Origin: Amphiscolops sp. MND2022
Lineage: Eukaryota
Direction: 5' to 3'
Assembly: GCA_964187785.1 (NCBI GenBank)
Contig: OZ076409.1
Coordinates: 9,178,001-9,242,000 of the forward strand
DNA length: 64,000 bases
The notes beneath the pieces are model-generated. The model was not told where the DNA came from. It saw nothing but the letters and a program-made list of their open reading frames with translations, and did no database searches. Positions within the stretch are counted from its first letter, which is position 1, and the number at the start of each line of letters is the position of its first letter. This document shows, piece by piece, positions 15,616 to 61,749 of the stretch. The position numbers and the translations under genes are program-made.

Positions 15616-15903
15616 CCCGCCCAAAACTCTTTTTTGTTGCCCCCCTCTTTGATTTACCCACCCCGATAATCGTTATGTCTGGGAGGAAGTCTTAAACCAT
15701 CCCATGAAATGATTACCTTGTAACGTAGCGTTAAATAACTCCTATCTTTATGTTCTAGTTAGTTAGTTGAACTACAATTTAAACTTGTTGCGGTTCCCCT
15801 ATGGAACCATCTTTGTACTATTGCAGCTGGATGACGAGCCTTAAGCTCTCCTCACAATGCACCTAGTAAGCCTAACGGTAATCCTTTTTAGACCTATGAT
15901 ATA

Positions 15904-20211: not shown

Positions 20212-20949
20212 ACCCAGCCGCTAATGGGAGCGTTCGCGCTCCCTATACCCTCACAAACTGCCAACAAACAGTGCCTTAAATCATCCAGAACGGTGCTACA
20301 GTACAAAGTGCAATTTTTGTTCATAGTTATGGTTATATAATTAGTGTACCATTAGTGTTGCACTGGGTGTACGGCCAATAGAGTACGCCTGCACCAGTGG
20401 CTTGAATTACCAAGCAGAAAGAAAAGAAAAACTATTATCAAGAAAAACTATTATTTTTATTGCGCACCGTTCGCGGTGTTTTTGAGTTGTCACAATCAAA
20501 AGAAGTCTTATCCCTCTTGATTGCGTTTCTTTCTAGTCTAGTGTTTTTCATCAATTTGGTTGTTCACCGTAAGAGCCCGCAAGCTCTAAAAAAGTTTTTA
20601 ACCGCCTGAAGTGAATTGAAGACTATAAGTCTCAAATGGTAAGGAAAAGCAATTTTAGCCGACTTTGGTCGCAAAAAATTTTTTTTACGTAAGTTGACTG
20701 CCCAAACGAGTTTTAACCGGCTGAAAACTGTAGCTCTCGAGCTGGTGCTAAAACCTCGTTCGTGTTTTGTACAAATAGCTAGGCAGTAAGTTCTTTTTTT
20801 TTTTCGTAAAAAAACCGCAAAGCTGACCAAAATTGTTGCCGAAAAACAAGGACTCGTCCTTGTTCCCCGATGTGTGGATGATGGTTCCCAGCAGTCACTG
20901 TGATGCAGTTCCCAGACGAGCCAGACGCCGCTTGCCAGGGACGACAAGC

Positions 20950-20967
20950 CAGGAGCCTGGGGAGTGA
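20950..20967 (+). promoter_or_regulatory. Polypurine tract of element A
   Basis: CAGGAGCCTGGGGAGTGA lies directly before the TGTAACG of the 3' LTR. Confidence 0.7.
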
Positions 20968-21696
20968 TGTAACGGCAAGCTCTGGTACAGCAATATCAAC
21001 CGACATGTTTAGAAATTTTGTCAAAAATTCGTTCAAATTTGACGTGGCACTCAAACATGCTCAAGACGAAGTACCTGCCAGAAAAAGCACCCCAGAAAAG
21101 CAGAAATCGCCGCTCGTTACAAACAAGGACCGGAGACGACTAAAAAGACGTCCCCAACGCATACAGAACACGGTATTGTGTCAATCTCTAGGAGATATCC
21201 GTTACTACAGTAAAGGAAACCAGTGTTCCAGTTGTTCGCCTGAGTATCCCTGCGGTATCCTGTGTGGCAACTAGCGCTAGCGCTGGGAAGCTGAGGTCAA
21301 TTTTCATCAAATGACTCTGAACTCTTGATTTCTTGTTGTATTTTTCGATGTGGTAAATTAATATGCTCGAGAGCTGTTGTTTAACATCTGTTTATCCAAT
21401 TTGGCGATTTTATCAGATTCTCCAATATCACGGTTCAACCTTCATCGATTTTCAGCCCAATTTTTAAAGGCTAGTTGAGCAGTGGTCTTGAGTCTTACAA
21501 GATGCCTGTTACTTTTAGCAGTTACAGACTAGGACCAGGCCAGAGAGTATCCTACAAGACGATTCCCCCACCTTGGGACTGGCTCCTCCGGAGGGAAAAT
21601 GAGCTAGAGCCGCGGAGATCTAGGTCCCAGATTATATTCGCTGTTCTAGTTCCTCCACTCTACTTTGCGGTTCAAGCGCCTGCGCTTATCGTTACA
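20968..21696 (+). repeat. 3' LTR of element A
   Basis: 729 bp TGTAACG...CGTTACA, homologous to 2925-3651. Confidence 0.95.
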
Positions 21697-26114: not shown

Positions 26115-28723
26115 AACAAGTTTTTTTCATTTGAAGAAAAAAAACAGCTGAACGTTTCAACTTCGAAAAGCACGTAAACATTAACAGTGTTCATTTGACA
26201 AAAGAGATCAACTGGAGGCGGTTAACAGTCTCTGCCAAAAGTACGATAAAATGTTTTCAAAAACGCGAATGATTTAGGAATTAACAATCAAACGGAACAT
26301 CAAATCAAGCTCAAACCAAACGCTCAGTCGTTTCGTAGAGCGAATGAAAACATGAGTTTTGACAAACGCAAAACCTTGAAAAAAATTGTCGAAGGATTAC
26401 CGGAAGCTGATCTAATAACACCAACCCATTCGGAGGGACAGAACCTAGTATTTTGGTTCCAAGGAAAGCCGGAACGTACTGACTTGTCGTACACTACCGT
26501 GGACTGAACAAACAAATAGAGAAGACATGTTAGCCGCTGCCTAGAATCAACGACATGATTGATTTCCTTGAAGGGAACATGTTTTTCTCGAGCATTGATT
26601 TGACATCGGGATACTTTCAAATGGCTCTGGAAGAGAACAGTCAGAATCTTACCGCCTTCTTCACGCCTTTGGGTCTCTACAAATGGAAGCGGTTACACAG
26701 AGGCTTTTCAAATCTTGATGGAGCTAATTTTCAGCGGTTTATCATACAAAGTAGCAATTGTTCACGTTGATGATATTATCGTGTTTAGTAAAAACATTGA
26801 AGAGCACCTTGAAGAAAGAATGGAGCATATTATCGAAAGACTGGAGAAACGTGGATAGAAAATCAAAGGATCAAAGTGCAACTTTTTTCAAAAAAAAAGA
26901 ATATGTTTTTTGGGCCACGTCATCTCGGATAAAGGAGTGAGAGTGAACCAAGAGAAAGTCAAAGCAGTAGAGAAAATGAAAGCACCCACCAGTTTAAAGG
27001 AAGTGAGGGCAGTTTTGGGATTAGTACGGTTTTAAAAGAAGTTTATTCCGGGTTTCGGAAAAACTTCAGAACCTCTAAATAACCTTTTCAAAAAAGAGAA
27101 AAAGTTCGTCGGGACCAACGAATGTGAAAGCGCTCTGAAAAAATTGAAATACAAACTATTGAAAGAACTTATCGTGGGTATCCCAACAGCCGACATGATT
27201 TTACGCTAACTACAGACGCCTCTTTGACAGACTTGATGCCATTTTGACACAGAAACGCAACGGGGTGGATGGAGAAATTGCATATGCCACAAAACACTCA
27301 ATTGGAGCCAAAGAAAATACTCAGCAACAAAAAGGAAATTTCTAGCGGTTGTGAAATTCACAAATCATTTCCAAACGTATCAGTTGGGGCGCGAATTTGT
27401 TATTGTAACCGACCATCTGGCTTTGTTTGGTTGTACAGTTTCAAGGAACCTTAAGGTATGATTTCAAGGTGGTTATAGAAATTGGGACAGTTTGACTTCG
27501 AAATAAAACACAACGCAGGAAAAGCCATCCCACTTGCGGACCGTTTATGAAGAGTTTAATCTAAAGGAGAGGAAACAAGAGCTTTTATCGCTGCATTTAC
27601 ATTTGAAGAAAACGTTCAAGAACAACCGAAGACCCCTTGGATGTTACTCCAGGGACAGCAGAAATAATCACAGGAAGCAGCAAGAGGATAAAAATCTGGC
27701 GAAAGTCTTCGCGTGGCTCAAAGATAAACAGCGCCCTGACCGACGGAGCATGTCCTTGGCGTCTAAAGGATTACGGAAGTATTGGGTCGATTTCAAGAAT
27801 TTTGCTGTCATGGATGGAATTATATATCGAAAAAAAGCAGGAAATGTCAGGAACTGCTGTGCTGCAACTAGCAGTTGCTGCGTCTCAGGTTCCACACATT
27901 TTACCATAACTGGACGAGTCTCTGTGTACGAGCCACCTGGGAATCGAGAAATCACAGAGCGCAAGAACAATTATTTAGCCAGGCATGAAAATAGACGTCA
28001 GAGAATGGGATAACAGTTGTAGTGAGTGTCTTAAAAAGAAAGAAAAACCACAATAACATCGCGACAGTCTTACTACATGGCAGGCCAGTCACCCGTTTTG
28101 GCAAGTATCAATGGACGTCATGGGACCTCTTCATGACTCTCAAGGTTGTACATACATTCGCCTAAATGGGGATCAATTCAGAAAGTGATATGAGGCCGTG
28201 GGAATGCCAAACCAAGAAGCCAAAACAGTTGCCGAAGCTCTAGTTGAAAATGGATCACACGTTTTGGGTGCCCTGTCAATCTTCATAGTGATACACCTAA
28301 TGATTCCATATTTAAAACAAAGCGTGAGCTACAGGAGGCATATCATTGGATCAGGATTCAGATGGAAGTAGAACAAACTAGACAGAAGTTCTACTACGAC
28401 TACCGCGCATAATGTACCGAGAAGGACAGCGAGTTCTTGTCTTTTTCTCAACAGTAAAAATGGGAGAAACAAAAAGTTGAGAGCGTTCAACAAAGGACCT
28501 TACGAAAATGTTGAAATTGATAACAGATAGAATCAGATTCAAACAATATAGGTGTAGGGAGCAAACATCTGTCAGAATTAACGAAACTAGGAGACGAAGA
28601 GAGTTGGAGGAAAAATCATTCGTCGAGGAAGTTGGAGATGACTTCATTGAAATTGAAGTCGAGCAAACAAACGAACCGGATAGGGAGGATCATGGACAAC
28701 TTTTCAGAATGAAAACCAGGTGA
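26115..28723 (+). pseudogene. pol: Heavily decayed pol (RT, RNase H, integrase) of B2
   Basis: FSSIDLTSGYFQ, VDDIIVFS (about 26767), FTLTTDAS (about 27200), CSEC, FWQVSMDVMGPL (about 28095), LHSD and KGPYE. Confidence 0.9.
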
Positions 28724-29349
28724 CAGCTGATCCACACAATGACGTTATAACCGTTGAAGAAAAGCCTAACGAGCGACAGTGTAGCGCGTCTTCAGAGAAG
28801 GACGGAAGTAGCAGTAGAGATAACTTCTCGACCGAAACAATTAAACCGAAAAATCAAAACAAAAAATTAAAAACAATCCACCACCTGGCGAAAAAGCAAC
28901 TGTCGCAAAAAGGGTCACCCAGGAGCGCCAAGAGCAGCCGAGGAACATTTTCGAGCTTGAGTTCGACAACAGAGTGCAGCGAGAAAAAATACGGAAAAAT
29001 ACGAGAAAAAAATACGATCCTAGCGCGCCAAAAGATACTGGCGAAGGGTGAGAGAAACAAAGCCAGAGTAACGGAAAAACTTATTAGGAAGCTGAAACAC
29101 AAAAACCTCATCCAACGTCCGTTCACACCCTATGAGATTCTTTCCGCAAAAGATGACGCAGACGTGAATGATATCAAACGTGATTACAAAAAATTAGCTG
29201 ACTTAACTCATCCTGACGCTGATGGATGTGATGAACACTTCAAAACAATCCACAGTGCCTATCTTATTTTGAGTAACCAGAATGCAAGAAACATATACGA
29301 CATATTCAGGTTAGAGGGGGCAGAAAAAAGAGTTAACCCGGAAGGCTAA
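28720..29349 (+). CDS. J-domain (DnaJ/Hsp40-like) protein segment, probably the frameshifted Pol C-terminus
   Basis: TPYEILSAKDDADVNDIKRDYKKLADLTHPDADGCDEHFKTIHSAYLILSNQNARNIYD fits the J-domain pattern, with HPD at 29209-29217. Confidence 0.88.
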   Translation: MTADPHNDVITVEEKPNERQCSASSEKDGSSSRDNFSTETIKPKNQNKKLKTIHHLAKKQLSQKGSPRSAKSSRGTFSSLSSTTECSEKKYGKIREKNTILARQKILAKGERNKARVTEKLIRKLKHKNLIQRPFTPYEILSAKDDADVNDIKRDYKKLADLTHPDADGCDEHFKTIHSAYLILSNQNARNIYDIFRLEGAEKRVNPEG

Positions 29350-45145: not shown

Positions 45146-45197
45146 CACTTTAATTGCCCATTTATACCTTTGTAATAATGAAATCCGGAAATATTAC

Positions 45198-47105
45198 TGT
45201 GTTGACCGTGATTCGGGAGTAAATCACTTGGTTCAACTAGTCTATATCTATATTCCGCGTTTTCTACATCTTCGTCGTCGGGACCATGACGTACGTTGTT
45301 AGACGGTCTTTCTGTCAGCGTATCGATTTTAGAAGTCAGGTTCTCTATCATCTTCAGAATCTCACGCTGTCCGACTTCCGCGTCTTTGTTTCTTTTACTT
45401 ACAGATTTTTCTATCTTTTCAGATAATTCCGTAAAATCCTTATCAGACAAAGTAGCAGCGTTTTCAGTTCTTATGCTAGAAGATTCAGGTTCGTCTAAAG
45501 AGTTCACAGGGGAATCCCTTCTGGCTTTTCTTTTGGAGCTACGTTCTGGCATCTTACGTAGGCTTGATAATTCTCGATTTTCTTTTTACGGAAATTAGAG
45601 GAAGTTCTCAAGTGACAAAGTGTGACGTTTCAAGATTTTTAATTATCGTTAAACGAAAGATAATTGTTTCGCAAAATAACAAAATTCAACTAAAAAATGG
45701 CTTCTAGCTCGCATTGTATTTATACTTCCCATCCCGGAAATCGGGGAAAAGACACGAACATACTTCACATTTTGTTCAGTCCGGCGTCCGTCCGAGGCAG
45801 GGAAACAGGAAATTCAGTTCCGCTTTGTCGAACTCAGGCTTTCAGCTTGTTCATGCTTTCCGAAGAAAAGCACGCATCCACTTCCGGCCTGAGTTGCGAC
45901 TCCGCTTCCCTTCGCCTCCAATTTCCCGCCTCTTCAGGACGCCGAACTGAAAAATTATCAACGACACGCGCTATGAGCCACTGAATAATATTGATTAACT
46001 GCACAAATTTGGGAACAAATGATGACAACCATTTTTCTTTACAAATAATTCCCTAAATTAAATAAATCAGCAACAATTTGAATGAAATTCAACACAAATT
46101 ACACATTAGGCTTTAAATGAAAGAGTAGAATTGCTTCTACAGTACTTGTAGCTCTGATTTTGATTAATAACACAAAGCCTGGTCCCAGGCCATAGTCCGG
46201 GACGGACAAACATGTTCAGTGGGTAAAGCAACTATTATTTATAAACAGCATCAGATACATTGTTCAGAAAGGTATTTAATGCAATTAAACGGCAACAGAT
46301 TCAGGGAACAGGATATACATGTTATTAACACTTGGTTTAATATTCGGTACTAAATCTTTGGTTCAGGCTGCGGTTCAGGCCTGTTTATAGATTAATCAAT
46401 ATTTACATGTAAAAGAACGTTATATGTAATATTTTAAACGACAATATAGTTTAAGATCGTAGATAATAATCTCTAGGTTCATTTTGAGACAAAGTTACAT
46501 GGTAGCATCATCATCTTTCACTTTCGTGATTGATTTATCGTAATTAACTCTCAGGCCGCATCCCAGGCCGCGGTACGTGATGTTCTATTAAGTTAGCACG
46601 GAAATCTCAATTGTTGGTATATTTGCAATCGTAATGTTAATAAATCACTGCACTAGACATTAGTTCGTTTACATGTATTCACTATAGCGCGCGCTTGCAT
46701 ATTGATCCGCTGAGGTTGCAATTCTCAGGCTGCCTGCCAGGCCGCCGCTTCAGTGCGAGTATTTGAGGCCGGCTGCCAGGCCTCAGTTCCGCCTTTAATT
46801 TCTCAGTTCATTCACTGAGCGGTGTAATTCAATTATTATTATTACATAGTATTGTATTATTATTAACTGCACAAATAGCTCCGTTATTCCGTAAGTACGT
46901 ATTTATATAAGTGTACAATATTATGATAATAATACTAATATGCATATATTTAATAATTTAACTTCAAATTTATATTGTTTAACTCCTTTGTTTCTGATTG
47001 TTTGTCCGTTGTCTATTTCCTCTTCTTTTGTTCTTTTCCCAATTTATTCTTCGAAGACTGGGTTGTGTTTGTTGCAATACTCGCAGCTCAGTCGGGGCTG
47101 TGACA
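45198..47105 (-). repeat. 3' LTR of element C
   Basis: Near-identical to 58916-60823. On the minus strand it is preceded by purine-rich AGAAGCCGAGGAC. Confidence 0.97.
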
Positions 47106-47849
47106 GTCCTCGGCTTCTGTACCCAGTTCCCTCAGGAAGAAGAAATTGGGAAATCGATCGAATCGGGGTCTCAAATAGCGTTGGGAGATCGTCAGTTAAG
47201 GAATTGTAGGATCGCCAAGATGAGTCTGTCTCCCAATCACTTCCCGAATAGTAGCCTTCTGAGCTACTGTAGAAACTTATCGGGCTATCAATGTGTAGTC
47301 GGGATCATCGTAAATTTCACGGTCGAATTGCCTGACCGGGCTCACAAATGTGTCTTCGGGGATCACTGGGTTGTCTTGCGTGAAACGTCTGATGACTCCC
47401 GTCTAGTTTTCTGTGTTCGTAGTATCGGCCGGCGTTTCTTCATGTACTAGGACTACGTGGTAGTCCTGTGTTTTAACGATTTCGTAAGTAATGTTAATTT
47501 GCCGCGTGGTAATTAGGTTATAATCTGGTGGCGGTGTACCGGCTCTTTGTTCGGGCTGCTGCTGTTGATCTCGTTCGAGAATGAAGACGTCTTCGTCCAT
47601 TTTGCTGTTTGAATTTGGATGATTCATTGTAGTAGAAAACTAAGCGTCAGTCAATTTTTAGTACAACTGATTTGCTTCGCTTGGAAAATTTGTTCACACG
47701 GTTTGTGTCAACTCCATGAATTGTTCAGCTGGCAGACTGAACAACTCTCCTTATATAGTGGATAACTTTTAGTAATAATATTTCCATTGATTTTACGCCA
47801 CATCTTCTTTTTATTTTTTCCATGGTTTGTTATTTTCAGACAATTGATT

Positions 47850-50800
47850 ATGTGCTCGACTGAAGAAGATAGTGCATTGTTGCACCGCAGTCGTGAAGCG
47901 GAGTTAGTCGAGAGTGGAGCTGAAGTTGAGTCTGTGGTTGAGTCAGTTGTCCGTGAGGGTGGAGGAGTGATTGTGGATGGCGACAAAAGGGAGGGAGGAG
48001 AAGCAACTGACGGTGGAATCTCTGCTGGTCATGGTTTTGGCGAGAAGGACAGTTCTGGAGATGAAGGTCCTGGGCCTTCGGACGGTGGAAGTTGTGTAGA
48101 GACTGGATCCTACCACTCGACTTGTAGTGAGGAGCGTCATGATCTGGACTACCTGGCAAGGAAGAAAGGTACACTTTTCCTAGGAACTGATAGTTGGCCA
48201 GCCTTTTCTAGGTTACTTTTGAACGCGTTCTTTTTCATCTACTTTTTGTAGCTACTGATGAGAGCGATGAAGATTATGTCCCCCCTAGTCAGCCGAAATC
48301 TCAGAGCAGTTCAAAACAACGGACTAGTCGGTTTCTGTCGACGAGTAGTGTGCGTTCTGCTAAGCGGGTGCGGCTGGCAGATGTAGTGGCTGGGTCCATT
48401 CCCAAGCCACCTGCCCTGGTCGATAGTTCTGGAGATGACTATTTTCCTCCAACCGTCTCTGCATCCCGTACTCTTGAAAGTAGGTATTCCGTCTTCTTTC
48501 TTTCTTGGTTTAAAGTTGCTTGAGAAGGGTGCTAAGCGCATGTGTTCTGTTCTCTTGTGCATATTTTTCGTTTTGTTCTATAGTCCCTGATCCAACTCCT
48601 ATTACTGGGATGCAAGCTTCTGTGGTGCCTCGGGTTGTTACCTCCACTGGCAGTGACGTTTTCGTTTGTGAGGAGGCACGTGATACCCCTGCTGTTGGGA
48701 GTGATCCGGCATCTGTGCTCGCTGACGAGGGTGTCCAGACGTCTCGGACGCAACATGGCCGTGATGCAATCGGACTGGAGCCTTCGGTCGTATACAACGA
48801 CTGGGAAAAAGGTATTGTTGAATGAGGCTGTTATTTTGTTGATGATTGCGTTTTCTTTAGTGATCGTTTTGTTGTATTGACATGGGGAAATAATATACAG
48901 GTGGCTTGTACTTTATCTTCGTGTCTTTTCAGTGGGTCTGAAGACTGTTTCTCCTGGGTCGCCAATGATGATGTCTGCTGCCCAGTGTGTGATGCTCGCT
49001 CGTAGTTCTGCTCGGGCTGAGCGGACAGAGACTCTGAAGGAGACCAAGACCCTGGCAAAGCGTAAGTTGTTTTCTGAAGTTGTTCCATTTCGTAGTGTAT
49101 TCTGATTGTCTTCCGTCTGGTCTTGTGTTGTTGTCTACTTTGTTTGTCTGTTCTATTTGGGTTGTTGATATTTCGTCATAGTACATTGGGTCATTCATTG
49201 GTGTTGTATGTTGCAGAATTTGAAGAATTGTCACGGCTCTTAAAAGAGAAAGGGATCGACGCAAGTGACCCTGGGCGCGTCCTGGATCCTGTGGCCCGTG
49301 ATTGTTGGAGCGATTGTTGGCCCGTGATGAAGAGCGGAAGAAGAAACAGACTGAGCGTCATGTATTGACTAAAGCTATGGTCAATCATCCAATTCCGCGT
49401 CTATTCGTCAGCAGGCGTACTGACAAAAGCCCCAATGGTTTCAATTGTGCCGTTTGTCGGAAAGATGTCTCCTTCTTATCCCGGGGTCCCCGGGGCATCT
49501 GGAGGCATTTTAAATGCAAGGGGCATTATTTGAAAGACCGTCGCTACCGTCTGGACCATGAGGATGTTATTTACAGCGAGAATTTAGATGCCATCCCCGT
49601 TGCTGAGGTGTCTGCTGAATTACGGGCTGAAATTGAACTGACGCCCCCTGTCACTCTCGGCAGAATGAACAAGTTTGTGGAGGACGAGGTCGATGCACTG
49701 GTTGGCGTCCCTTCCAATGTACCGCCGACGACTCTCGTTGGATGCCTCTTCGAGTTGCTGAGGAGTGGAGGGTCACAAGTGTTCCTGCGTCGTCTCTGGA
49801 ACCAATTTCGGACGACCTTGCCGGTGGAGAGTCCCTATGCTTCCGTGAGCTGGAGTAAGACGGAGACTTTGGTTGTTATTGTCCAAACTCTTTTCCCTCG
49901 CGTTCTTCGACGTGTGAAATCGTGGCTGGGTGACAGTCCTTTTAGCTTGGCGCTGCAGTCTTCGCTCTCAGGAGTGAAGTGTGTCGTCCGTTGCTGTCCC
50001 GACGATTCTGTACGTGAGATCTGTCTGGTTGATGTGGAGTTTGGCGGGGTCTCCTGTGAGACGGAGATTCAGTGTTTGGCTCGGGTATTATCGCTTGTGC
50101 CAACTCGTCAGGGCCCCGTTTCCATCCAGGGTTGTCCTCCTGTGCTGTTCAATGCCTACGTGGATTGGTGCCAAGCTGTCGGTCGACCTGTTCCAATTGC
50201 TGCTATTGTCTTCGACTGTGATGTTCTGCGTCGTTTGATGCATGATGCTAGTTTTATGTGCGTTGGGTCAGTGGACCCCTTTGCGACTGTGGAATACTTG
50301 GTGCAGCGCCTAAAGCGAGTCCGACATCAAGCTTGGTTATTGAACTTGCCTCGATTCCGTATGTGTTTGGAGTCTGGTGTCATACCTGCTGCCTCTTGGT
50401 GTGATGTGGTCCAGGAGCTGCTGGATAATTGGTCAGATATCAAGATTTGCCTGTCAAATGATACTCTCTTGATGAAGAAGAACGTTAACGTTGTTGATCT
50501 GGATTCGTTGTTGTGCTCGGATCGTTTGGGATTGCCTCGTCTTGCTTTATTGCATGTGGTGTTGCTGTGTTTCCGCTCTAATTGTAAAAAACAGTTTGAG
50601 TCTTCTGTGCGGGACTACGGTTGCAGGAACTCCAGTGATTTCTGTTTCTTCTATTGGAGTCTCTTGAGCAAGGTCAAGAAAGTCAGCCAATTGCCTTCAA
50701 TCGACAAGTGGTCCGAGTATGTGTCAAAGCCATTGAATAATTGGGCCAATGTAACAGTTGCTGAGTGCCTGCAGGGGGAACCCAGTATTTTGAAAGCTCT

Positions 50801-51680
50801 CCGAGGGTTGGATGAGTCCCCTCGTCGCTCTTTCTTGCGCGAGTGTCAGGGATGTTTACTTGAACTTTTGAAGCAGCTCAGTTCCAGTCCTTACGCCCAT
50901 TCGCGGATTGCTCGGTCGTTGAGTTCCTTAAGTGTGGACATGTTGCTGGGCGGGGACGCCGATTACGTCGCAGACTTATTCCAGGATCTTGTAGCCTGTT
51001 TGCAGGAGTCTGGTTGCCTAGATGGTGTGGAGCGTGAGGCCGCATCAAACGAGTTCAAGTCTTTGGTCGTGGAGTTGCGTGGACGTTCTGTGGATTGTTC
51101 CCAAATCGATGATGTATTCAGTTTTTTGGAGTCTCTTGATATCTTCCAGTGCCGGGCTCATGTGAGGCAGGTCGTTCGTCTCGTGCGCGTGATTGTGTGT
51201 CCTGCGCCTCGTCCTCTTCCTCACGTTGAAATATTAACTAGTGGTTGTAGTGTGCCTCTGTCTGTGATCCAGACTGGTTTGAGTGGTGTTCAGTCATTTG
51301 TTATTCAGCCTAAGTTTGTATCAACTGAGCTTTTGACAGTGGAGTGTATTGCAGAATTGAAGAGTAATCTGTTAGTTGGTCATCTGTTCTTGGGTTGCAG
51401 TACCTTCGATCCCTGGGGCGGAATCAGTCGTCATCCATATGAAGATGTCTTCGGAAGTATCTTTCGGTGTTATACTGCTTATTATGCTGGGCAAGTTGAT
51501 GAGTGGAGAGCTCGTATGACAGCCGGCCCGTCTTCTCGAGGAGAGGCCTCTGGAGGTACGTCTGTAGCTGATACTGCGTCTCTTGTTGTAGCTTCTGGAT
51601 CTCAACAGGGCACTACTAGTCCAGCATCCGAGAAGAAGAAAAGGAGTAAGAAGAACGTTCGGCAAGGAAAGTCGTGTTGA
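47850..51680 (+). CDS. Spliced antisense cargo gene of element C: BED-finger, hAT-transposase-derived protein (about 1,114 aa reconstructed; one 23-nt frameshifting insertion)
   Basis: Exons 47850-48168, 48252-48479, 48584-48811, 48933-49061 and 49217-51680 are joined by four GT-AG phase-1 introns and keep an open frame. CAVC...RHFKCKGH and SKTET...SPFSLAL motifs are present. Confidence 0.8.
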
Positions 51681-52015
51681 ATGATATCGTAACTGGAGAC
51701 TTTGAAGAAACTGTTTCTTTGTACTTTGTTTTTATTGTTCTTGTTGGAATTAGTCATTGTTCTTCTCATATAGTTAGGTTCCGCGTGTCGGTTCCTTTGG
51801 TAGAAGAGAAAAAAAAATCATGCTCTGATATTATGGAGCGGAGAAAAAATTTGAGGCAGCTCCGTGGTCCACTGGGTTATTCAATTTAGTATTTAGCCTC
51901 TGTATTGTTTTCATCCGAGTCGTAGAGTACAGTAGAGTGAGTGAAAGCCATTGTGATTTGAAGAGATTTGAAGTCAGGTCATAGGATTGTGGTCCAGGCC
52001 AGTGTCTGGGCCTGA

Positions 52016-53646
52016 TTAATTTTCTGATCTCGGACTGCCGTCTGGGCCGAGGTCCGCTAAAACCTGTAATTCTGGGCCGTTGTCCAGTCTGTCGGAAGAA
52101 TATGCCAAGTTTGTTGAATTGGCTGTTAGGGCATTGTAATAGGCATAATCTGGTTTCCAATTTGACGTCGGGTTTTTCCGAAGGTTGTAGTGGGATTTCC
52201 GGGGGGATTGAGGTGCGGGTGTGTGATTTTCGGGTTCATCATCGATATTGGTTAGTGGGTCCTGTGTCTGGTCACTTGGGTGATTAGGAATGATTTCGGG
52301 GTCGTATATTAGGTTAGGGCTTGGGGGGCCGGGGTGGGTGGGTTCAATGATTGTATCTGGGGTTGGTTGGATCACTTCAGGTTCGGGTAATTGTTTGTTT
52401 TCGGGTTGGTTAGGGCATTCTTTGTAAAGTTCTTCCCACGCCATTGCGAAGAGGTCGTCGTGCTGTATGGCTACCTCTGTATCCTGCTGGAAATCTTTGG
52501 GTGGGACTGTAATGTCAGGCAGCTTGTGACTGCTTGCGAAGGGGCGTAGCCTGATTCTGTGCAGGATCTGTGTGAAATTGGTCTGGAGTTTACGTATAAG
52601 ATAGTTGTTGTTGGGTAGGGTTTTGACCACGATATATGGTCCCGTCCAAAGGTATTCCCGAAACGGCAATTTCGTCGCTTGGCTATGCGCCTTTGAATGT
52701 AAAGCATAGCAGTAGTCGTTTACTACCAAGGGGTGTGCTGATGCTTTCCGGTCATAATAACGCTTATGTCGGACGTAGGCTTGCATCAGGGCTTGTTGGC
52801 TCTGGTTGAGGATTTCTTGTGTTTGTTGTAACACTCCCTCAGCTATTTCGTGGTTGGTTGGGGCAGTGGCCTGGGGTTTAAGGCCGTACTTTAGGTCGAG
52901 TACGTTGTATGGCACTCTTCCATGGAAAACTCGGCTGGGTTCGCAGCCTAATGATGTGTGGTAGGAAGTGTTGTAATTTAATACTGCCATTGGTAAGAAT
53001 TGGTGCCACATCGTTCGCCTCTCTCCCGTCATGATTTTTAGGCTTGCTTTGAGCGAGGCGTGGGTCCTTTCTAGGATGCCTATCGTCTGTGCATGTTTGG
53101 TGGTGGCATGTTTCAGTTGGATTCCGAGAATGGCTGTTGTTTGTTGCATTGCCTCCGATATGAACTGGGATCCTTTGTCCGTGATTACCGTTGTGGGGAG
53201 ATAGCAGTGTCTTGTGATGATATCTGTAAGGACCCGTGTGACAGTCTTGGTGTCGATTCTGGCGACGCTATACGCGAATAGATAACGGGAGAATACATCC
53301 ATCGCTGTGATGACTGCAGTGTATCCTCCTGAAGGGTCGTCGAAAGGGACGATGTCCATTTGTAGTGTGTCTTCTGGGCCCATTCTATTTTGGACATGTC
53401 GATGAGCGGGGGTGTAATGTTGGCATTTGGTATCCTTTTCGTTTGAGCGCATTCTGGGCATTGTGCAATATGGGTGGCTATTCGGGCGGCTAGCCCCGGG
53501 AAGTAGTACTTTTCGCGGCATTGCTGGATGGTTTTAGTTATACCTGGGTGTTTCCCGAATTTGCCATGGTGGTGTTGTATGAATTCGTCAACTAGTTGCT
53601 GGGGGAGTAGTACTTGCAAGTACTTGACTTTCCCTGTATCGCCAAA
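52016..53646 (-). pseudogene. pol: Integrase of element C (frameshift near 53385)
   Basis: HHGKFGKHPG...CPEC, LQMDIV, ITDKGSQF, LERTH, WTGPY and a Pro-rich tail. Confidence 0.95.
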
Positions 53647-56600
53647 CTATTGTCGATACAGGAGTCCATCTTTTATGATGATGCGATCATCTTGTGTGAG
53701 GTATTTGGCCGCTCTGGGGTCGTCGTTCAGAAGTTGGGTGTCGTACGGTTCTTTTAGGATTTTCAGTTTGAGGTTTCTGAGGACGGGGTCCTGGTCTTGG
53801 TACGGTCTCAGACTGCGCGGGAAGCTTGTGTCACTGTGAAGTTGGCGCCGTTGTTCTTGCTCTGGGTCTTGGATGTTGTTGCAGACCAAGGGTAGGTTCT
53901 CGGGTTGGGAGATGGTTTGGACAGTTTCACTCTTGGGGTCGGAGTTCTGGTCATGGGGTGTGTAGATCTGTTTCCTGGCTTGTTGTTTACGCTCCCAAAT
54001 GACTTCTTCGGTCTCAGTATCGTCCTCTGGTAAAAAATAGAATTGATCTTCTTCATGGATGTCGGAGGATTGTATGTTTACCTGGATCGGCGTCGTTTGA
54101 ATGTCTTCTCTGATTTGGAGAAAGACTTTTTCTTTGGGGCTAATGTCTAATCGGGAGAGGAAATCGGCTGCTGTATTCATCCTTCCCGGCACATGGGCGA
54201 TTTTAAAGTGAAATTGCAGTACAAAATCGCAGGCATTCCAGAGGGAGGGTGGTATCATCTTGGTTTGGAAAAACCTGGTGACTGATTTATTGTCGGTTAA
54301 GACAATAGTCGGTTTGGATGAACCCCACAAGATGTGACTATATTCCATAAAAGCGAAATAGATAGCTAAGAATTCTTTGGCATAGATTGACATCTTCAAC
54401 TGGGATGGTGAAAAAGTTTTAGAGCCTAATGCCACTGGTGCGTAAGTCTTCCTGGTGGAGGTTATCTTTTGCTCCGGGTCTTCTTCCGTCATCAAGGCAT
54501 ATCCGGCATTCTTGAAGCTTGCGTCTGTCATTAGTACGTACTGCCGGTTTGGCAGTGGCTGTTTGAGCCAAAGGCCGCATGCGTTGTCTAACGTTTTGTT
54601 GATAGCTTCGAAATTGGATATGAGTTCCTGATCTATCTTGACTGGCTTGTCTGATTTGATGAATTCATGAAATGGGGCAATCTTCTCTGATAATCGGGGA
54701 ATGTAGTTTCTGTAGTAATTTACGAAGCCGATGTATCTTTGAAGTCCCTTCTTCGTCCGGGGGAATTTGATGGTCTGAAGGTGTTTCTGGATCTTGTGGC
54801 TTTGGGGTGCCACCCCTGCTGGGGAAATTGTTCGCCCAAGGAATTCGACTTCCTTGGCGCCGAACTGACATTTGGCCATGGAGAGCCGGAGTCCTGCTGC
54901 GCGGATGCATTGGAAAACTTCTCTCAAGTTGTTCTTTAACTCCTCGGGAGTGTTGGTGGCGATTCCAATGTCAACGTACTGAGCGCATTTGTCCGCCTTT
55001 ATGGCCTTGTCGAGGTATTCCCTCATGAAACTTGAAAAGGACGACAATGAGCGGCTCAGGCCTTGGGCTAGCCTGAGGTACGCGAATGTCCTGCTGGCGA
55101 AGTTGAATGCTAGAAGTTGAACGGACTTCTGGTCTGCCATTTGTAGCACGTGGTAGGCTTGTGAACAATCAAGCTTGCAAAACAACTTCTTGCCGGCGAG
55201 GTGTTGCGCCGCGTCTGTCAGTGTGCTCACTCGATGATTGTTGTTAATGTAATCATCAGATATCAGATTGTTGATTTTTCGGAGGTCGACTAGTAGGCGC
55301 AGGCGGCCGTTTGGCTTCCGTTGGGCGAAAATGGGGCTGGCATACTTGCTGAACGGGAGCGTGGTTATAATCCCGAAGTAATGCATTAGGGCCAATTCGA
55401 CCGTCAGATCTTCTTTCAGGTTAATGGGGCAGGGCAAACTTTGTGAGTAGACGGGGTCGTCTGTTTTCGGTGTGAGTTTGATTTTGAAATCATGGTTGAT
55501 TCCAATGTCCAGTCGATGTCTTGCAAAGATGTCGTTGAACTCTATGAGTATTTCTTCGATATCTTTCTTGTCATCTTCGGAGAGTTGTGAATCGTCCCAG
55601 TTGAAGCTTTGGAGGAATGTTTTTCGTTCCTCTTCACTGTTGTTTGGGTCGAGTTTCTGGATTTCTTCCAGTTCTTTGATTTCTCGGAGAATTCGGTTCT
55701 GGATCGGGGTGTAGGTAGCAGGATCCCCGGGGTGGTCTGGTGTGGGAAACCAAAAGTTTTGATTGTGAGATGGTTTTTCTGAGGTTTTCAGGAGCTCGTT
55801 GATGTACACCATCGCATCTTCGGAGTCGTCTTCGGCGAGCACTTTGAGTGCTGCTGTGTTGAGTGGTTTGAGTTCTTTTGCCTCTTCGGGGGACAGGATT
55901 TTGAATTCTGCTATTGTTGTGTTTCGTTTGATGGTATAGGGTGTAGGGGTGGTATTTGTTACTCTGATGTCGATTTTTCGGTTTGAGGCTGTTGAGATTG
56001 AACTGGCTACCACTAGGGGGTCACCACTGCAGTGGTTGGTGGCTGGCTTGATGACACCGGTTGTGTCGACGTTGGATGGTATATCCGTGGAGCCTGTTAT
56101 TGTTTGTGTCGTTTCAGGGGGAATAGTGAGTGGATTCTTTATTTGTACTTTGTACAGTTTCCTGTTACGGGTATATTTATCGGTTTCGATTGAATATGTG
56201 AGGTGGGGGAAGTGTAGCAGGCCCTGGCTCACGTCCAGGATGGCGCTGTTATTTTTAAGGAACGTAAGGCCAAGTATTGGGCCTGTCAGTCGTTTGGCCA
56301 CGATAAAAGTTTCCTTAAAATTCCAGTCTCCGATTTCGAATTGGAGGATGATTGTTTTGGTAGGCGTTTCAATGTCGCCATTTGCGACTTGGAGTTTGAA
56401 AGGGGGTGGTTCCAACTCTTTAACAATGTCTTTGGGGGACATTTGGAGGATTTTATTGTAATCGGTTTTGGAGATGCAGTTTACAAGGGCGCCAGAGTCA
56501 ATAAGGGCGTCCAGGGTCAAGTCCTGGAAGTCCATGGGGGCGAAGAGCATTTTCTTCTTCTTTTTGAGGGATACTGCTGAAAAGATTGGTATGCACTCTT

Positions 56601-57780
56601 CTTTTGTTATGGGGTCTCTCGTGAGGTATTCCGCAATCTGGGCTAGGGGGTAGGACTAGGGTTCGTCCTGGGGTGGTGTGTCGTTTACAACACCGGTGGG
56701 GGATCCAGATTGTGTATTAGTTGCGGCAGGGTTGAGGGGTCGAGGGTCCTCGACTTCGTTTTCGGTCTGCCTACTGAAGAGAGAGGTGGGAACGTTGATT
56801 TCTCTGACTGGACTTTTGTTGTTCCTCTGATATTCTGCAGTCTGCTCAGGGAGGTAGGACTTGGGAACGTCCTGTTGCGGTGTGCCGTTTGCAGCACCTG
56901 ATGGGAATTCAGACTGCATGTTGGTTGCGTCAGCTATGATGTGTCGATCGGTGTCGATTTCATCTTCTAGCTGACTATTGAGGATAGTGGGTGAGAGCTG
57001 TGTCTCGTGTTGAACGGAGGGTTCTAGGAGAAGAGATCTCTTTATTCGTTTGGTTTTTGGTTTGGAGAAGTTTGTCTCCGAGTTGGGTGTAGGTGAGGTC
57101 GGGTCCACGGCTTCGATCGTGGTCCTGTCGGTGAGGTCTCTGTGTTGGTGGCTGTCTGGTGCCACGTCCATTGTTGGGGATCGTATGATACCGGCTCTGA
57201 TAGGGTTTCTTGGCTGATCTTTTGGTGGAGAATGGGGAGCCATGGTATAGGATCCTTGGTTCTTGAGTATAGATTTGACGTTGTTCTGTGAGATATCAAC
57301 TAGGATTTCTGTTACGTGTTCGACGTCCTGGTTGTAGTCTGGGATAGGTTGGACGGTTTTGGACCTGTAGCGTGGCTCGGTGGAGATATTCATCCCTGTT
57401 TTCCTGATGTACTCTTCAAATGGCGTGCATTCCTGTTGTTTGAACGTTAGGGTCGTCTTGTCATATAGTTGAGGGTTATAGTATGGGTCGCAGTTGAAGT
57501 CAGAGTCGTGGAAGTAGGTTTCAGGGGAAGTGCTTTCTGGTAGGGGTCGTTTAGGAGTATTGTAAGCAGTCGGGTTGTCAAGGTACCACTGAGGGTAGTC
57601 TTTCTTTGCGGTGTTTTGGCGATTATATTTGTGGAGCTTGTGAATCTGCCATCTTCGCTGCCAGTCGAGAGATGGTTCTTCGTGTCGCTCGGTGTTCTTT
57701 TCGTAGTCATATGAATTTGGGGGTTCGGATGTTGTGTACTGTCGGGTTTCGACAGTCTCCCCAAATCGAAGATGTGGCAT
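53647..57780 (-). pseudogene. pol: pol of element C: about 400-aa N-terminal extension, protease, RT, RNase H (in-frame stops at 56656 and 53647)
   Basis: ALIDSGA, LRLLVDLRKIN, KLDCSQAY, LAQGL, YVDIG (one Asp of YVDD missing), MTDAS and AADFLSR. Confidence 0.95.
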
Positions 57781-57782
57781 AT

Positions 57783-59270
57783 TTAGTTTTTTGATTGGCT
57801 GAACTCGAGGGTTTGGTTTTGGGGTTGAGTGGTCTGCGGGAGCATGGGTTGGTAGCCCGTTTGGCTATTTGTTTGGTTGTTATATGGCTGCTGATGTACT
57901 GGTGTATTGTCTGGAGGGTACTGACCTTGTGTATTCTGTGGCAGCGGGATGTTATTCGGTGAAGTTGCTTTAGGGGTCTTCCACCATTGGGGTCTGTTTG
58001 CCCAGTTGGCGCCAGAATAACATTCCTGTGTCGTATGGCTATTTTTGCCGCAGGTTTCACATGGGTTTGTTATTTTAGTCGGTGCCCTGTTGCCTCGGTT
58101 GCGGGCTTCTCGGGCAGTTTTCCGGCAGTTCTTTATTACATGTCCTGGGTTGCCACATTCGAAACACGGGCCTGCTGGTTTGGGTGGATTGGCGGTTTGT
58201 TGTGGGGCATCTTGTACATCGATTTGGTGTACTGCCGTTATGTTTGTTTCGCTTGGGGCCAGGAGTCCGTTTAACTCCATCTCGCGTTCCAGGTGTTGGA
58301 CCATCAGGTCGTACGACTCTGTCTCGAGTCTTGCCTGGTTAAGGACTCGTTTTAAGTGCGCTGGCATTTTTGCATAGAATGAGGTTTCTATGAATTTTGG
58401 GGCGTCGTCGCCATATGCCTCCTGTGCCAATTTCTGGTATTGCTCCAGGAAGTCTTGGAAGGTTTGGCGAGTCGGGTCAAAGTAAAGCTGTTCCCACTTA
58501 CATCTTGCGGTGGCTATAGATTGTGGGCGAACGTATCGTCTTCGGAATGTGGTAATGATGTCGTCTAAACTGGCGCGGTTTGCGTCTGTCATATTGCGAT
58601 ACGTCTGTAGGGCATCGCCTCTCAGGAGGGAGTGGAAGTAGTGAATTTGCTCTTCCTCTGAGATATTTGGATATACTTTGAGGCTCGTCATAAACAGGTC
58701 CTCGAAGTGCTCGAATTTGTCATTGCGGCCATCAAATGTGGGCATGGTTGTTGAGAGTGCCTTTGGGAGTCTGGGCAATCCCGCGCTCTGTTGTGTGGCA
58801 TTCTTCAGGGATTCGAGCAGTTTGTCCACGATATCGTCTGGATATCTCATGTTGGGCGGGGGTAGGCTGGATGATCGGGTGGGTATGTCCTGGGTTATGG
58901 TAACTCCTGTCACCATGTGTTGACCGTGATTCGGGAGTAAATCACTTGGTTCAACTAGTCTATATCTATATTCCGCGTTTTCTACATCTTCGTCGTCGGG
59001 ACCATGACGTACGTTGTTAGACGGTCTTTCTGTCAGCGTATCGATTTTAGAAGTCAGGTTCTCTATCATCTTCAGAATCTCACGCTGTCCGACTTCCGCG
59101 TCTTTGATTCTTTTACTTACAGATTTTTCTATCTTTTCAGATAATTCCGAAAAATCCTTATCAGACAAACTAGCAGCGTTTTCAGTTCTTATGCTAGAAG
59201 ATTCAGGTTCGTCTAAAGAGTTCACAGGTGAATCCCTTCTGGCTTTTCTTTTGGAGCTACGTTCTGGCAT
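57783..59270 (-). CDS. gag: gag of element C (495 aa, intact), initiating inside the 5' LTR
   Basis: MPTFDGRNDKFEHFEDLF capsid-like motif and two knuckles, CFECGNPGHVIKNC and CETCGKNSHTTQEC. Confidence 0.93.
   Translation of the reverse strand: MPERSSKRKARRDSPVNSLDEPESSSIRTENAASLSDKDFSELSEKIEKSVSKRIKDAEVGQREILKMIENLTSKIDTLTERPSNNVRHGPDDEDVENAEYRYRLVEPSDLLPNHGQHMVTGVTITQDIPTRSSSLPPPNMRYPDDIVDKLLESLKNATQQSAGLPRLPKALSTTMPTFDGRNDKFEHFEDLFMTSLKVYPNISEEEQIHYFHSLLRGDALQTYRNMTDANRASLDDIITTFRRRYVRPQSIATARCKWEQLYFDPTRQTFQDFLEQYQKLAQEAYGDDAPKFIETSFYAKMPAHLKRVLNQARLETESYDLMVQHLEREMELNGLLAPSETNITAVHQIDVQDAPQQTANPPKPAGPCFECGNPGHVIKNCRKTAREARNRGNRAPTKITNPCETCGKNSHTTQECYSGANWANRPQWWKTPKATSPNNIPLPQNTQGQYPPDNTPVHQQPYNNQTNSQTGYQPMLPQTTQPQNQTLEFSQSKN
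57786..57792 (-). promoter_or_regulatory. -1 ribosomal frameshift slippery site A_AAA_AAC
   Basis: The minus strand reads TCA AAA AAC TAA at the gag end. The -1 frame reads AAA AAA CTA AAT ATG CCA into pol. Confidence 0.8.
58902..58915 (-). promoter_or_regulatory. Primer-binding site of element C (tRNA-Leu-like)
   Basis: TGGTGACAGGAGTT lies immediately after the LTR end and is similar, from memory, to the tRNA-Leu PBS TGGTGTCAGGAGT. Confidence 0.7.
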
Positions 59271-60823
59271 CTTACTTAGGCTTGATAATTCTCGATTTTC
59301 TTTTTGAGGAAATTAGAGCAAGTTCTCAAGTGACAAAGTGTGACGTTTCAAGATTTTTAATTATCGTTAAACGAAAGATAATTGTTTCGCAAAATAACAA
59401 AAATCAACTAAAAAATGTCTTCTAGCTCGCATTGTATTTATACTTCCCATCCCGGAAATCGGGGAAAAGACACGAACATACTTCACATTTTGTTCAGTCC
59501 GGCGTCCGTCCGAGGCAGGGAAACAGGAAGTTCAGTTCCGCTTTGTCGAACTCAGGCTTTCAGCTTGTTCATGCTTTCCGAAGAAAAGCACGCGTCCACT
59601 TCCGGCCTGAGTTGCGACTCCGCTTCCCTTCGCCTCCAATTTCCCGCCTCTTCAGGACGCCGAACTGAAAAATTATCAACGACACGCGCAATGAGTCACT
59701 GAATAAGATTGATTAACTGCACAAATTTGGGAAAAAATGATGGCAACCAATTTTCTTTACAAATAATTCCCTAAATTAAATAAATCAGCAACAATTTGAA
59801 TGAAATTCAACACAAATTACACATTAGGCTTTAAATGAAAGAGTAGAATTGCTTCTACAGTACTTGTAGCTCTGATTTTGATTAATAACACAAAGCCTGG
59901 TCCCAGGCCATAGTCCGGGACGGACAAACATGTTCAGTGGGTAAAGCAACTATTAGTTATAAACAGCATCAGATACATTGTTCAGAAAGGTATTTAATGC
60001 AATTAAACGGCAACAGATTCAGGGAACAGAATATACATGTTATTAACACTTGGTTTAATATTCGGTACTAAATCTTTGGTTCAGGCTGCGGTTCAGGCCT
60101 GTTTATAGATTAATCAATATTTACATGTAAAAGAACGTTATATGTAAAATTTTAAACGACAATATAGTTTAAGATCGTAGATAATAATCTCTAGGTTCAT
60201 TTTGAGACAAAGTTACATGGTAGCATCATCATCTTTCACTTTCGTGATTGATTTATCGTAATTAATTCTCAGGCCGCATCCCAGGCCGCGGTACGTGATG
60301 TTCTATTAAGTTAGCACGGAAATCTCAATTGTTGGTATATTTGCATTCGTATTGTTAATAAATCACTGCACTAGACATTAGTTCGTTTACATGTATTCAC
60401 TATAGCGCGCGCTTGCATATTAATCCGCTGAGGTTGCAATTCTCAGGCTGCCTGCCAGGCCGCCGCTTCAGTGCGAGTATTTGAGGCCGGCTGCCAGGCC
60501 TCTGTTCCGCCTTTAATTTCTCAGTTCATTCACTGAGCGGTGTAATTCAATTATTATTATTACATAGTATTGTATTATTATTAACTGCACAAATAGCTCC
60601 GTTATTCCGTAAGTACGTATTTATATAAGTGTACAATATTATGATAATAATACTAATATGCATATATTTATTAATTTAACTTCAAATTTATATTGTTTAA
60701 CTCCTTTGTTTCTGATTGTTTGTCCGTTGTCTATTTCCTCTTCTTTTGTTCTTTTCCCAATTTATTCTTCGAAGACTGGGTTGTGTTTGTTGCAATACTC
60801 GCAGCTCAGTCGGGGCTGTGACA
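58916..60823 (-). repeat. 5' LTR of element C
   Basis: 1908 bp, TGTCACAGCC...GGTCAACACA on the minus strand. Confidence 0.97.
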
Positions 60824-61029
60824 ATTACGTGCAGTTGCAGGCACCAACAATTAACACCAATTACTAGGACCTCATTTTATCAAACGGTGTAATCTTCTTT
60901 CACATTCTTCAGTATTTCAAGACTTAGTAAAATGCGATTCTCAATCATTTCTACTTTTAGAACTATTTGTTCAACTTTGTAATTTCAATCTTCAAAAGGT
61001 TGTTAAGTAGCTGATCAATTAGAAATTTT

Positions 61030-61175
61030 GGAACGAATTGTCGCTTTTTACAAATGGGACGAAATGTCGCCTTTTGAAAATGGAACGAATTGCCGCTTGG
61101 GACGAACTGCCGCTTGGGACGAATTGCCGCTTGGGACGAATTGTCGCTTTTTCGAAATTGGGACGAGTCGTCGAT
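61030..61175. repeat. Tandem ~20-bp repeats (GGACGAATTGCCGCTTG), right arm of the element split by C
   Basis: Several tandem units, reverse-complementary to 45077-45145. Confidence 0.75.
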
Positions 61176-61222
61176 TCGCCCAACATCTTCCCGAATTTGA
61201 CTGACTATGAATAATACGTCAC

Positions 61223-61519
61223 CTAGCAGGGCAAGATTTATCATGACTGAACCCAAATCATCCGCGTCATCGATGACGTAATACAGGATGATGGTGATTG
61301 CGTAACTCATCAGGGATCCAGTGATCAGGGCAATGTAGGGTGTTTTGAAGTGCCTCTGCACTCGTGACAGGGGGCTAGGAAAGAGACCGTCTCTGGAGAT
61401 GGCATAGAGAAGACGTCCAGTGCAAAAGAGAAAAGAATGAAAACTGGCAATGAGCCCCACAACCAGTATCCAGCTGAAGTAGTCCAGATAGGACGAGTTG
61501 TTAAAAACTGTCTTGTAGC
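61223..61519 (-). CDS. APC permease-like gene, internal exon
   Basis: AG/GT boundaries, phase 1/1. GLIASFHSFLFCTGRLLYAISRDGLFPSPLSRV...KTPYIAL. Confidence 0.93.
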
Positions 61520-61749
61520 CTGAAATTACAAACATGTATGCCTCATTTTTTAAACATTTCAGTATCGTATCGAAAACAAGCAAAAAAGTATGTATCTCAA
61601 TTATTATTTTCAACCCCGTGTTCGTTTGAATTCATTCGCTGTGTTCGGAAATATTTGAAAAGAAGTGCAAAACAAATAGCAAAGAGTAAAGCTTTTTTGT
61701 TACTGCTCACTGCTCAACTGGAAATTTTGTAGAAATATATATTCAACCA

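Follow-up and report, generated by a model that had tools for sequence, protein, structure and literature searches.

Antisense accessory open reading frames (ORFs) in long terminal repeat (LTR) retrotransposons are known mainly from plants. Like the gene described here, the aORF-3R of Retand, Grande and RIRE2 lies antisense in the interval from pol to the 3′ LTR and shows conservation across its lineage, and the available text of two papers ascribes to the plant aORFs a suspected nuclear or DNA-binding regulatory role and to the Grande aORF a promoter of its own (PMC11963269; PMC7264820). Their origin is called unknown in the accessible part of PMC7264820, where derivation from a transposable element (TE) insertion is described as unsupported, no similarity to other TEs being known, and the word 'intron' occurs 0 times in the main text of either paper as available. 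Here we report a gene in the corresponding antisense position, with the integrase end on one side and the 3′ LTR on the other, in a 15.6-kb Ty3/gypsy-like LTR retrotransposon (element C, positions 45198–60823) in a 64,000-nucleotide stretch of the Amphiscolops sp. MND2022 genome (GCA_964187785.1, contig OZ076409.1, positions 9,178,001 to 9,242,000 of the forward strand), hereafter the window. Whereas most plant aORFs encode TRP28 (PF04195), this gene has no PF04195 match in Pfam; it sits in an animal genome, has four conserved introns, and encodes a protein predicted to have the fold of a hAT transposase. Taken together, the evidence makes it probable, if well short of certain, that element C represents a Ty3/gypsy-like animal element with an antisense, spliced, hAT-fold accessory gene that was captured and retained.

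The host genome (1.07 Gb in 1,929 contigs) scores as that of an animal: Metazoa_SRP reaches 218 bits (cut-off 70), whereas Plant_SRP does not pass its own cut-off. We weighed an affiliation with plant Retand elements and set it aside, since the host is a metazoan and the TRP28 domain is missing. Animal LTR elements that have gained extra modules include the bdelloid ORF3s and arthropod CopiaMBD, and in the accessible parts of the papers concerned some of these captured modules are thought to guide integration or to counter silencing (PMC5408684; PMC6673714). The modules (GDSL, DEDDy, env-like and MBD) lie downstream of pol or are fused within its ORF; in the text available, PMC5408684 uses 'antisense' once, for small-RNA reads, and 'intron' and 'transposase' 0 times, and PMC6673714 uses 'antisense' 0 times. 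Our literature search, whose scope did not extend to subscription journals or Repbase-type libraries, turned up no case of a hAT-fold antisense gene in an LTR element. With such a gene an LTR family would combine, unusually, both main classes of mobile DNA, and element C would be an animal case of an antisense accessory ORF with a structurally identifiable origin, a DNA transposase.

The gene occupies positions 47850–51680 of the + strand, opposite to gag-pol, and is made up of five exons joined by four phase-1 GT-AG introns. We aligned it with 20 further copies from the same genome that are 71–99% identical in DNA (hereafter siblings), and list its parts here together with what the siblings keep.

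47726–47807, + strand: conserved promoter-like block upstream of the gene, near-invariant in 5/5 aligned sequences, down to 47% protein identity
47850–48168, + strand: exon 1, 319 nt, ATG at 47850, acidic; ATG kept in 18/20 siblings
48169–48251, + strand: intron 1, 83 nt, phase 1; siblings GT 18/20, AG 20/20
48252–48479, + strand: exon 2, 228 nt, with a KRVR-type basic patch
48480–48583, + strand: intron 2, 104 nt, phase 1; siblings GT 20/20, AG 16/20
48584–48811, + strand: exon 3, 228 nt
48812–48932, + strand: intron 3, 121 nt, phase 1; siblings GT 20/20, AG 19/20
48933–49061, + strand: exon 4, 129 nt, same length in 19/20 siblings
49062–49216, + strand: intron 4, 155 nt, phase 1; siblings GT 20/20, AG 19/20
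49217–51680, + strand: exon 5, encoding the finger and the predicted hAT-fold core; stop codon 51678–51680
inside 49287–49309, + strand: frame-shifting lesion, copy-specific; the window differs here from all 20 siblings
49446–49526, + strand: CCHH zinc finger, residues 49–75 of the last-exon protein; C, C, H, H invariant in 20/20 aligned proteins
49707–51323, + strand: predicted hAT-transposase-like core, residues 136–674, an RNase H-like domain interrupted by an all-helical insertion

All four introns begin with GT, end with AG and, because the exons preceding them measure 319, 228, 228 and 129 nt, fall in phase 1, exactly as the original prediction had drawn them from the window alone. Joined, the exons of the window copy give no open frame, their total of 3,368 nt being two more than a multiple of three; exon 5 on its own contains a 792-codon open frame from 49302 to 51680. 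The break had been attributed to a 23-nt duplication-like insertion at 49287–49309 whose removal would restore 1,115 codons, and this part of the earlier description did not survive the alignment. Across these positions 20/20 siblings mutually agree and the window alone carries a short rearranged stretch, whose length change is not a multiple of three. Removal of the 23 nt would also cut seven codons that every sibling keeps, and the natural open form of the window's subfamily is therefore 1,122 codons and not 1,115.

When the exon plan is projected on the siblings, GT is found at 78/80 donors and AG at 74/80 acceptors. The lost sites belong to single degenerate copies, to one deletion, and to three copies of a 71%-identical subfamily at intron 2, in which an in-frame AG lies 9 nt upstream of the acceptor position. 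Almost every copy has internal exons of 231, 228 and 129 nt, the window's exon 2 being 3 nt short of the length seen in most siblings, and complete open frames of 1,119–1,135 codons exist in 4/20 siblings from three subfamilies, while the other 16/20 carry frameshifts or stops in line with old insertions. The same plan extends to a family whose last-exon protein is 47% identical: it has introns at the four homologous positions (90, 98, 111 and 153 nt), all GT-AG and phase 1, and an open frame of 1,176 codons. On this comparative evidence the exon-intron structure is far beyond chance, and the introns have, as judged from their conservation, come through many cycles of retrotransposition. They persist because they are antisense to the genomic RNA and so cannot be spliced from it, as had been argued from the window sequence, and element C thus provides a clean natural example of introns outlasting reverse transcription by way of the antisense strand.

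The siblings also allowed us to gauge selection on the protein. For two subfamilies compared at a dS of 0.49, short of saturation, the ratio of nonsynonymous to synonymous substitution (dN/dS) comes to 0.105, with 0.08 for exon 5 and 0.17 for exons 1–4; overall exons 1–4 lie at 0.12–0.17, so that the N-terminal extension is still constrained. Against the 71% family the ratio is about 0.05–0.07, dS being saturated in that comparison. Purifying selection of this order is as strong as for many host genes, and by this measure the antisense gene is a genuine protein-coding gene under strong purifying selection. Sibling copies had been named at the outset as the place to look, and there the gene is present, its introns are conserved and dN/dS stays within 0.05–0.17. 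The same figures bear on the idea that the antisense RNA itself is what matters, through copy-number control, double-stranded or small RNA, or transcriptional interference, with the long ORF secondary. Regulatory roles for conserved antisense transcription in LTR elements have been put forward; for Arabidopsis Copia elements the available text of bioRxiv 10.1101/2024.04.02.587720 describes antisense transcripts that are multi-exonic and non-coding, and regulation mediated by double-stranded RNA is raised in the accessible part of a review of plant aORFs (PMC7264820). Yet selection acts on the protein, since dN/dS is 0.05–0.17 over 1,100 codons and both frame and phase are preserved across subfamilies, and we regard a purely RNA-based role as quite improbable; an RNA role could coexist with that of the protein.

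The LTR element that carries the gene has the following features.

45193–45197, no strand: left copy of the 5-bp target-site duplication (TSD), the same five bases standing at both element ends
45198–47105, − strand: 3′ LTR, 1908 bp, 98.6% identical to 58916–60823, with TG...CA ends
47106–47125, − strand: polypurine-tract region adjoining the 3′ LTR, recognised from sequence; approximate, moderately purine-rich only
52016–59312, − strand: gag, protease, reverse transcriptase (RT), RNase H and integrase by Pfam matches; broken in the window copy
58904–58915, − strand: primer-binding site, begins TGG and adjoins the 5′ LTR, likewise recognised from sequence
58916–60823, − strand: 5′ LTR, 1908 bp, 98.6% identical to the 3′ LTR
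60824–60828, no strand: right copy of the 5-bp TSD, matching the left copy

Along the minus strand the Pfam domains follow in the order Retrotrans_gag, zf-CCHC, aspartic protease, RVT_1, RT_RNaseH and rve. With the LTR pair, the TG..CA termini, the short TSD, the primer-binding site and the polypurine tract, this domain order identifies element C as a Ty3/gypsy-like element (Metaviridae), without placing it in a lineage within that group. The LTR pair and the Pfam matches bear out the earlier placement of the antisense gene opposite gag-pol and inside an LTR element. In window coordinates the 3′ LTR is the left one, and it lies upstream of the antisense gene on the + strand.

The arrangement is not peculiar to one family. 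The order LTR, antisense gene (+), integrase (−), RT, gag, LTR recurs in the families at 71%, 47% and 26% identity; the example read of the 47% family has LTRs that are 99.9% identical. In the fourth lineage the accessory protein is about 26–34% identical and the gene is cut into more frames. The position of the gene is thus common to lineages down to 26% protein identity and the intron sites to those down to 47%, and in one comparison the accessory protein diverges faster than RT (47% against 72% identity). In the single copy of the 26% lineage that was read (L057:1549–4360, minus strand), extra introns or frameshifts divide the homologous gene among four or more reading frames, and the first cysteine of the finger is replaced, although CCHH is kept by database proteins of related lineages. 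First-look counts of candidates in the genome, which are rough and of a lower-bound type, stand at 382, 12,126 and 8,481 for three families, and in one family 40/54 scored last-exon matches are free of stops.

These observations bear on a rival view, that the gene arrived recently as a nested hAT insertion, or came from the host by transduction and travels as a neutral passenger. Genuine hATs are plentiful in this genome and nested insertions are common in repeat-rich genomes. The gene, however, occupies the same place and orientation in four diverged lineages, co-diverges with pol and is under strong purifying selection, and of 30 inverted-repeat pairs found, the 25 longest include none that flanks it on both sides. 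This agrees with the original prediction, which saw neither terminal inverted repeats (TIRs) nor a TSD around the gene, and it goes against the scenario named there of a segment bounded by hAT TIRs and absent from other copies, as the gene recurs at the same place in other families. An 8-bp duplication of the hAT type was likewise not what we found, the mobile unit being the LTR element with its 5-bp TSD. We give the nested or passenger explanation almost no weight; by position and co-divergence the antisense gene belongs to the retroelement lineage as a conserved, integral component rather than a nested insertion.

To what fold the protein belongs was judged from an AlphaFold2 model built from a 21-sequence alignment (A1). 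Residues 140–745 are modelled with confidence (predicted local distance difference test, pLDDT, mostly 80–95), with an overall mean of 71.9 and a predicted template modelling score (pTM) of 0.67. In a Foldseek search of the PDB the ten best matches were all Hermes, with expectation values (E) of 6.6e-4 to 1.4e-2 and probabilities of 0.99–1.00, and the match that follows these ten entries has a probability of 0.10. The predicted structure displays the RNase H-like domain with a large all-alpha insertion that characterises hAT transposases. A language-model search, used as a lead only, gave hAT-derived clusters as neighbours at 0.81–0.84. We accept from this predicted structure that the core of the accessory protein has the hAT (Hermes) transposase fold, and structure comparison here upholds the hAT relationship proposed in the original prediction. 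The protein could instead be some other or new RNase H-like protein with a helical insert, its resemblance to Hermes reflecting a common architecture or a modelling artefact. But in two structure searches Hermes lies at least 6 Z units above every other fold, over about 400 residues of sheet and insertion, the Foldseek probability drops from 1.00 to 0.10 at the next match, the CCHH finger stands at the N-terminal position where hAT has BED, and the independent language-model neighbours are hAT-derived families. A non-hAT origin thus appears unlikely to us; the conserved, spliced antisense accessory gene stands even if the protein is not hAT-derived.

Compared with Hermes (PDB 8edg, 4d1q, 2bw3 and 6dww), the accessory protein shares the fold over residues 136–674 and an N-terminal zinc finger, but identity is only about 10–12%, with no detectable sequence homology, no conserved DDE residues at the positions placed from aligned ranges, and no signal for the hAT C-terminal dimerisation domain (PF05699). 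It also differs in some 70 extra structured C-terminal residues and in a roughly 335-aa acidic N-terminal extension, and its gene has no TIRs or 8-bp TSD and is carried by a retroelement. The finger reads C-x2-C-x16-H-x5-H, is modelled as a beta-hairpin followed by a long helix (pLDDT 83.7), and precedes the core, where hAT transposases carry BED. Of the earlier claim of a BED-like finger, the CCHH motif stands, being invariant in 20/20 proteins, and the BED identity is unproven. Exons 1–4 encode an acidic, Ser/Gly/Pro-rich extension of about 300 residues; the 298 in-frame residues include 50 D+E against 32 K+R, in accordance with the acidic N-terminus described earlier, and 110 S+T+G+P.

No acidic residue is conserved across families on strand beta1 (214–220), where position 219 is Q, R, K or F and position 220 is S, E, K, C or D, and after beta4 a conserved G/C-P is found and not D. 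The accessory protein is probably catalytically dead, because no acidic residue is conserved on beta1 of the modelled fold. It had been claimed that Q stands at the first catalytic D; judged from the aligned ranges of RuvC-type folds, the first catalytic Asp would fall near residue 219, in agreement with that Q, and the loss of catalysis drawn from it is likely rather than proven. An enzyme still active as a transposase or nuclease with non-canonical residues, lending the element a second, DNA-level activity, would account for a full hAT-like core retained under strong constraint, for the acidic residues at position 220 in several divergent families, and for Q343-x-W345, which is invariant in A1 and kept in the 26% lineage and which might correspond to the hAT RW motif. 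V-Q-S at 663–665 (Q664 and S665 nearly invariant) and the nearly invariant R618 are also conserved across divergent families, and all three might correspond to hAT motifs. No acidic residue is however conserved on beta1 or after beta4, no TIRs among the 25 longest inverted pairs of 30 bracket the gene, and the copies show LTR-type 5-bp duplications, all of which make a surviving enzymatic activity very improbable.

A number of results weigh against a captured hAT transposase with a DNA-binding role. Pfam reports 0 families at E ≤ 0.1 for the last-exon protein, nothing meaningful for exons 1–4 and none meaningful in 16 relatives; profile searches of the PDB gave best E values of 0.2 and 1.1, and phmmer against it gave nothing significant; and hhalign comparisons with six genuine hAT transposases from this genome, based first on 21 and later on 40 aligned rows, returned probabilities of 0.14 and 0.20. 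One of these six transposases itself aligns to Hermes (E 9e-21), its D, D, W and E motifs being visible. The peptide blocks that had been quoted as hAT-like are indeed present in the 792-aa last exon, but no sequence method (Pfam, PDB profiles or hhalign) backs their similarity to hAT. PF05699 was not detected in the protein by Pfam, although the domain is readily found elsewhere in the genome, with at least 150 matches over the cut-off; since the structural alignment reaches Hermes residue 609, a diverged equivalent of the domain may exist in the model. The isolated finger model had no Foldseek match at E ≤ 0.001 (best E 2.2, with BED domains at ranks 16 and 28) and leans to the RNA-binding U1/matrin type over BED, all scores being weak. 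The catalytic positions were placed from aligned ranges and secondary structure and not by superposition. Of the database relatives of the protein (36 in one search, 368 in another), two were traced and are 100% identical to places in this same genome, so that every relative traced so far comes from it. Finally, 14 host flanks compared together with the window (one of the 15 rows, an internal junction on the primer-binding-site side, being ignored) yielded no target-site consensus, which therefore lends no support to sequence-specific integration tethering.

The genome also holds canonical hAT elements, with 2,215 first-look candidates, and several have open frames of 600–700 aa with BED, DUF659 and dimerisation domains. 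It is possible that they are relatives of the captured ancestor, though no sequence link was found.

Upstream of the gene, the conserved block at 47726–47807 consists of a 17-nt motif (47726–47742), a TATA-like TATATAG (47752–47758) and a second 17-nt motif (47791–47807). The TATA-like motif is present in the closer families and is not kept in the 47% family, whereas a pyrimidine-rich stretch ending in CAG, about 10 nt before the ATG, is almost invariant across five sequences. Conservation over the 250 bp that lead up to the ATG (47600–47849) exceeds that of the introns: the 71% family retains 82% identity in this 5′ flank, and 38–50% in introns 2–4. We infer that 47726–47807 is the gene's own promoter, possibly with the acceptor of a leader exon, although the block might instead act in cis within the sense RNA. 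Identity in the 71% subfamily is 79–80% for intron 1 and only 52% for exon 1, and a regulatory element may lie within this intron.

HBZ is a small bZIP protein whose transcription starts from the 3′ LTR. As described in the accessible part of PMC10186651, antisense genes of this deltaretroviral type likewise encode a protein at the 3′ end of the retroelement, are expressed only from integrated DNA and yield spliced isoforms. The accessory protein of element C, by contrast, has about 1,120 residues, a predicted transposase fold and no bZIP in Pfam, and the promoter-like block of its gene is internal and not in the LTR.

If the gene was indeed captured as we propose, an ancestor of the clade would have taken up a hAT transposase gene, which would then have lost its terminal repeats and catalytic acidic residues while coming to be transcribed from the promoter-like block just upstream of its ATG. 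Transcription from an internal block of its own would mean that the protein is made only from integrated DNA copies. It would act in trans as a nucleic-acid-binding accessory factor needed for propagation of the lineage, the likeliest roles being regulation of the element's own transcription or chromatin state, or help to the pre-integration complex. Repeated short motifs that could serve as binding sites in the LTR and spacer did not exceed shuffled controls, and tandem repeats were trivial only; with neither LTR binding motifs nor a target consensus, neither of these two roles is favoured, and the DNA-binding regulator or anti-silencing factor of the original prediction is unsupported. Were the protein needed for propagation, the family would lend itself to the study of how one class of mobile element domesticates another and would supply a new kind of retroelement accessory factor, with a candidate role in transcriptional control, chromatin evasion or integration.

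ZBED proteins and DAYSLEEPER are single-copy host genes that serve the host. In these host-domesticated hATs, too, fold and finger are kept, catalysis is lost and nucleic-acid binding is presumed (see also PMC3499209). The gene of element C differs from them in being kept by, and multiplying with, a selfish retroelement in thousands of copies. A further-reaching proposal is that the clade is a stable chimera of class I and class II elements, present in thousands of copies and dependent on a dead, finger-bearing hAT-derived factor, with the antisense introns themselves functional. This we hold to be conceivable but doubtful. If true, the antisense layout and the introns would restrict production of the protein to integrated copies, and a spliced transcript resembling that of a host gene could evade surveillance of intronless mobile DNA, an idea that derives from work on vertebrate HUSH (PMC8770142, in the part available).

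The copy of element C in the window is itself dead, as it combines the frameshift in the antisense gene with at least two lesions in pol, both on the minus strand: a premature TAG at 53647–53649, just before the HHCC finger of the integrase, and a frame change inside the integrase, within 53185–53533. A further in-frame TAG at 56656–56658 (minus strand) separates a 402-aa ORF downstream of gag, which overlaps gag by 82 nt in a different frame, from the protease-RT ORF. The 71% family has the same 3-nt gap between its two tblastn matches, for which reason programmed read-through, rather than mutation, may explain this TAG.

Elsewhere in the window, an amino-acid-permease-like ORF fragment (60963–61631, minus strand) lies 140 bp past the 5′ LTR, so that element C may lie within or beside a host permease gene. 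Another Ty3/gypsy-like element, distinct from element C, occupies 6319–19770 on the + strand, and downstream of its integrase are large sense ORFs at 16276–17046 (256 aa) and 17047–19770 (907 aa), without a Pfam match. Its LTR-like repeats, at 1473–3596 and 19520–21641, are about 18 kb apart, and an ORF with a DnaJ domain is located at 28684–29349 (+ strand).

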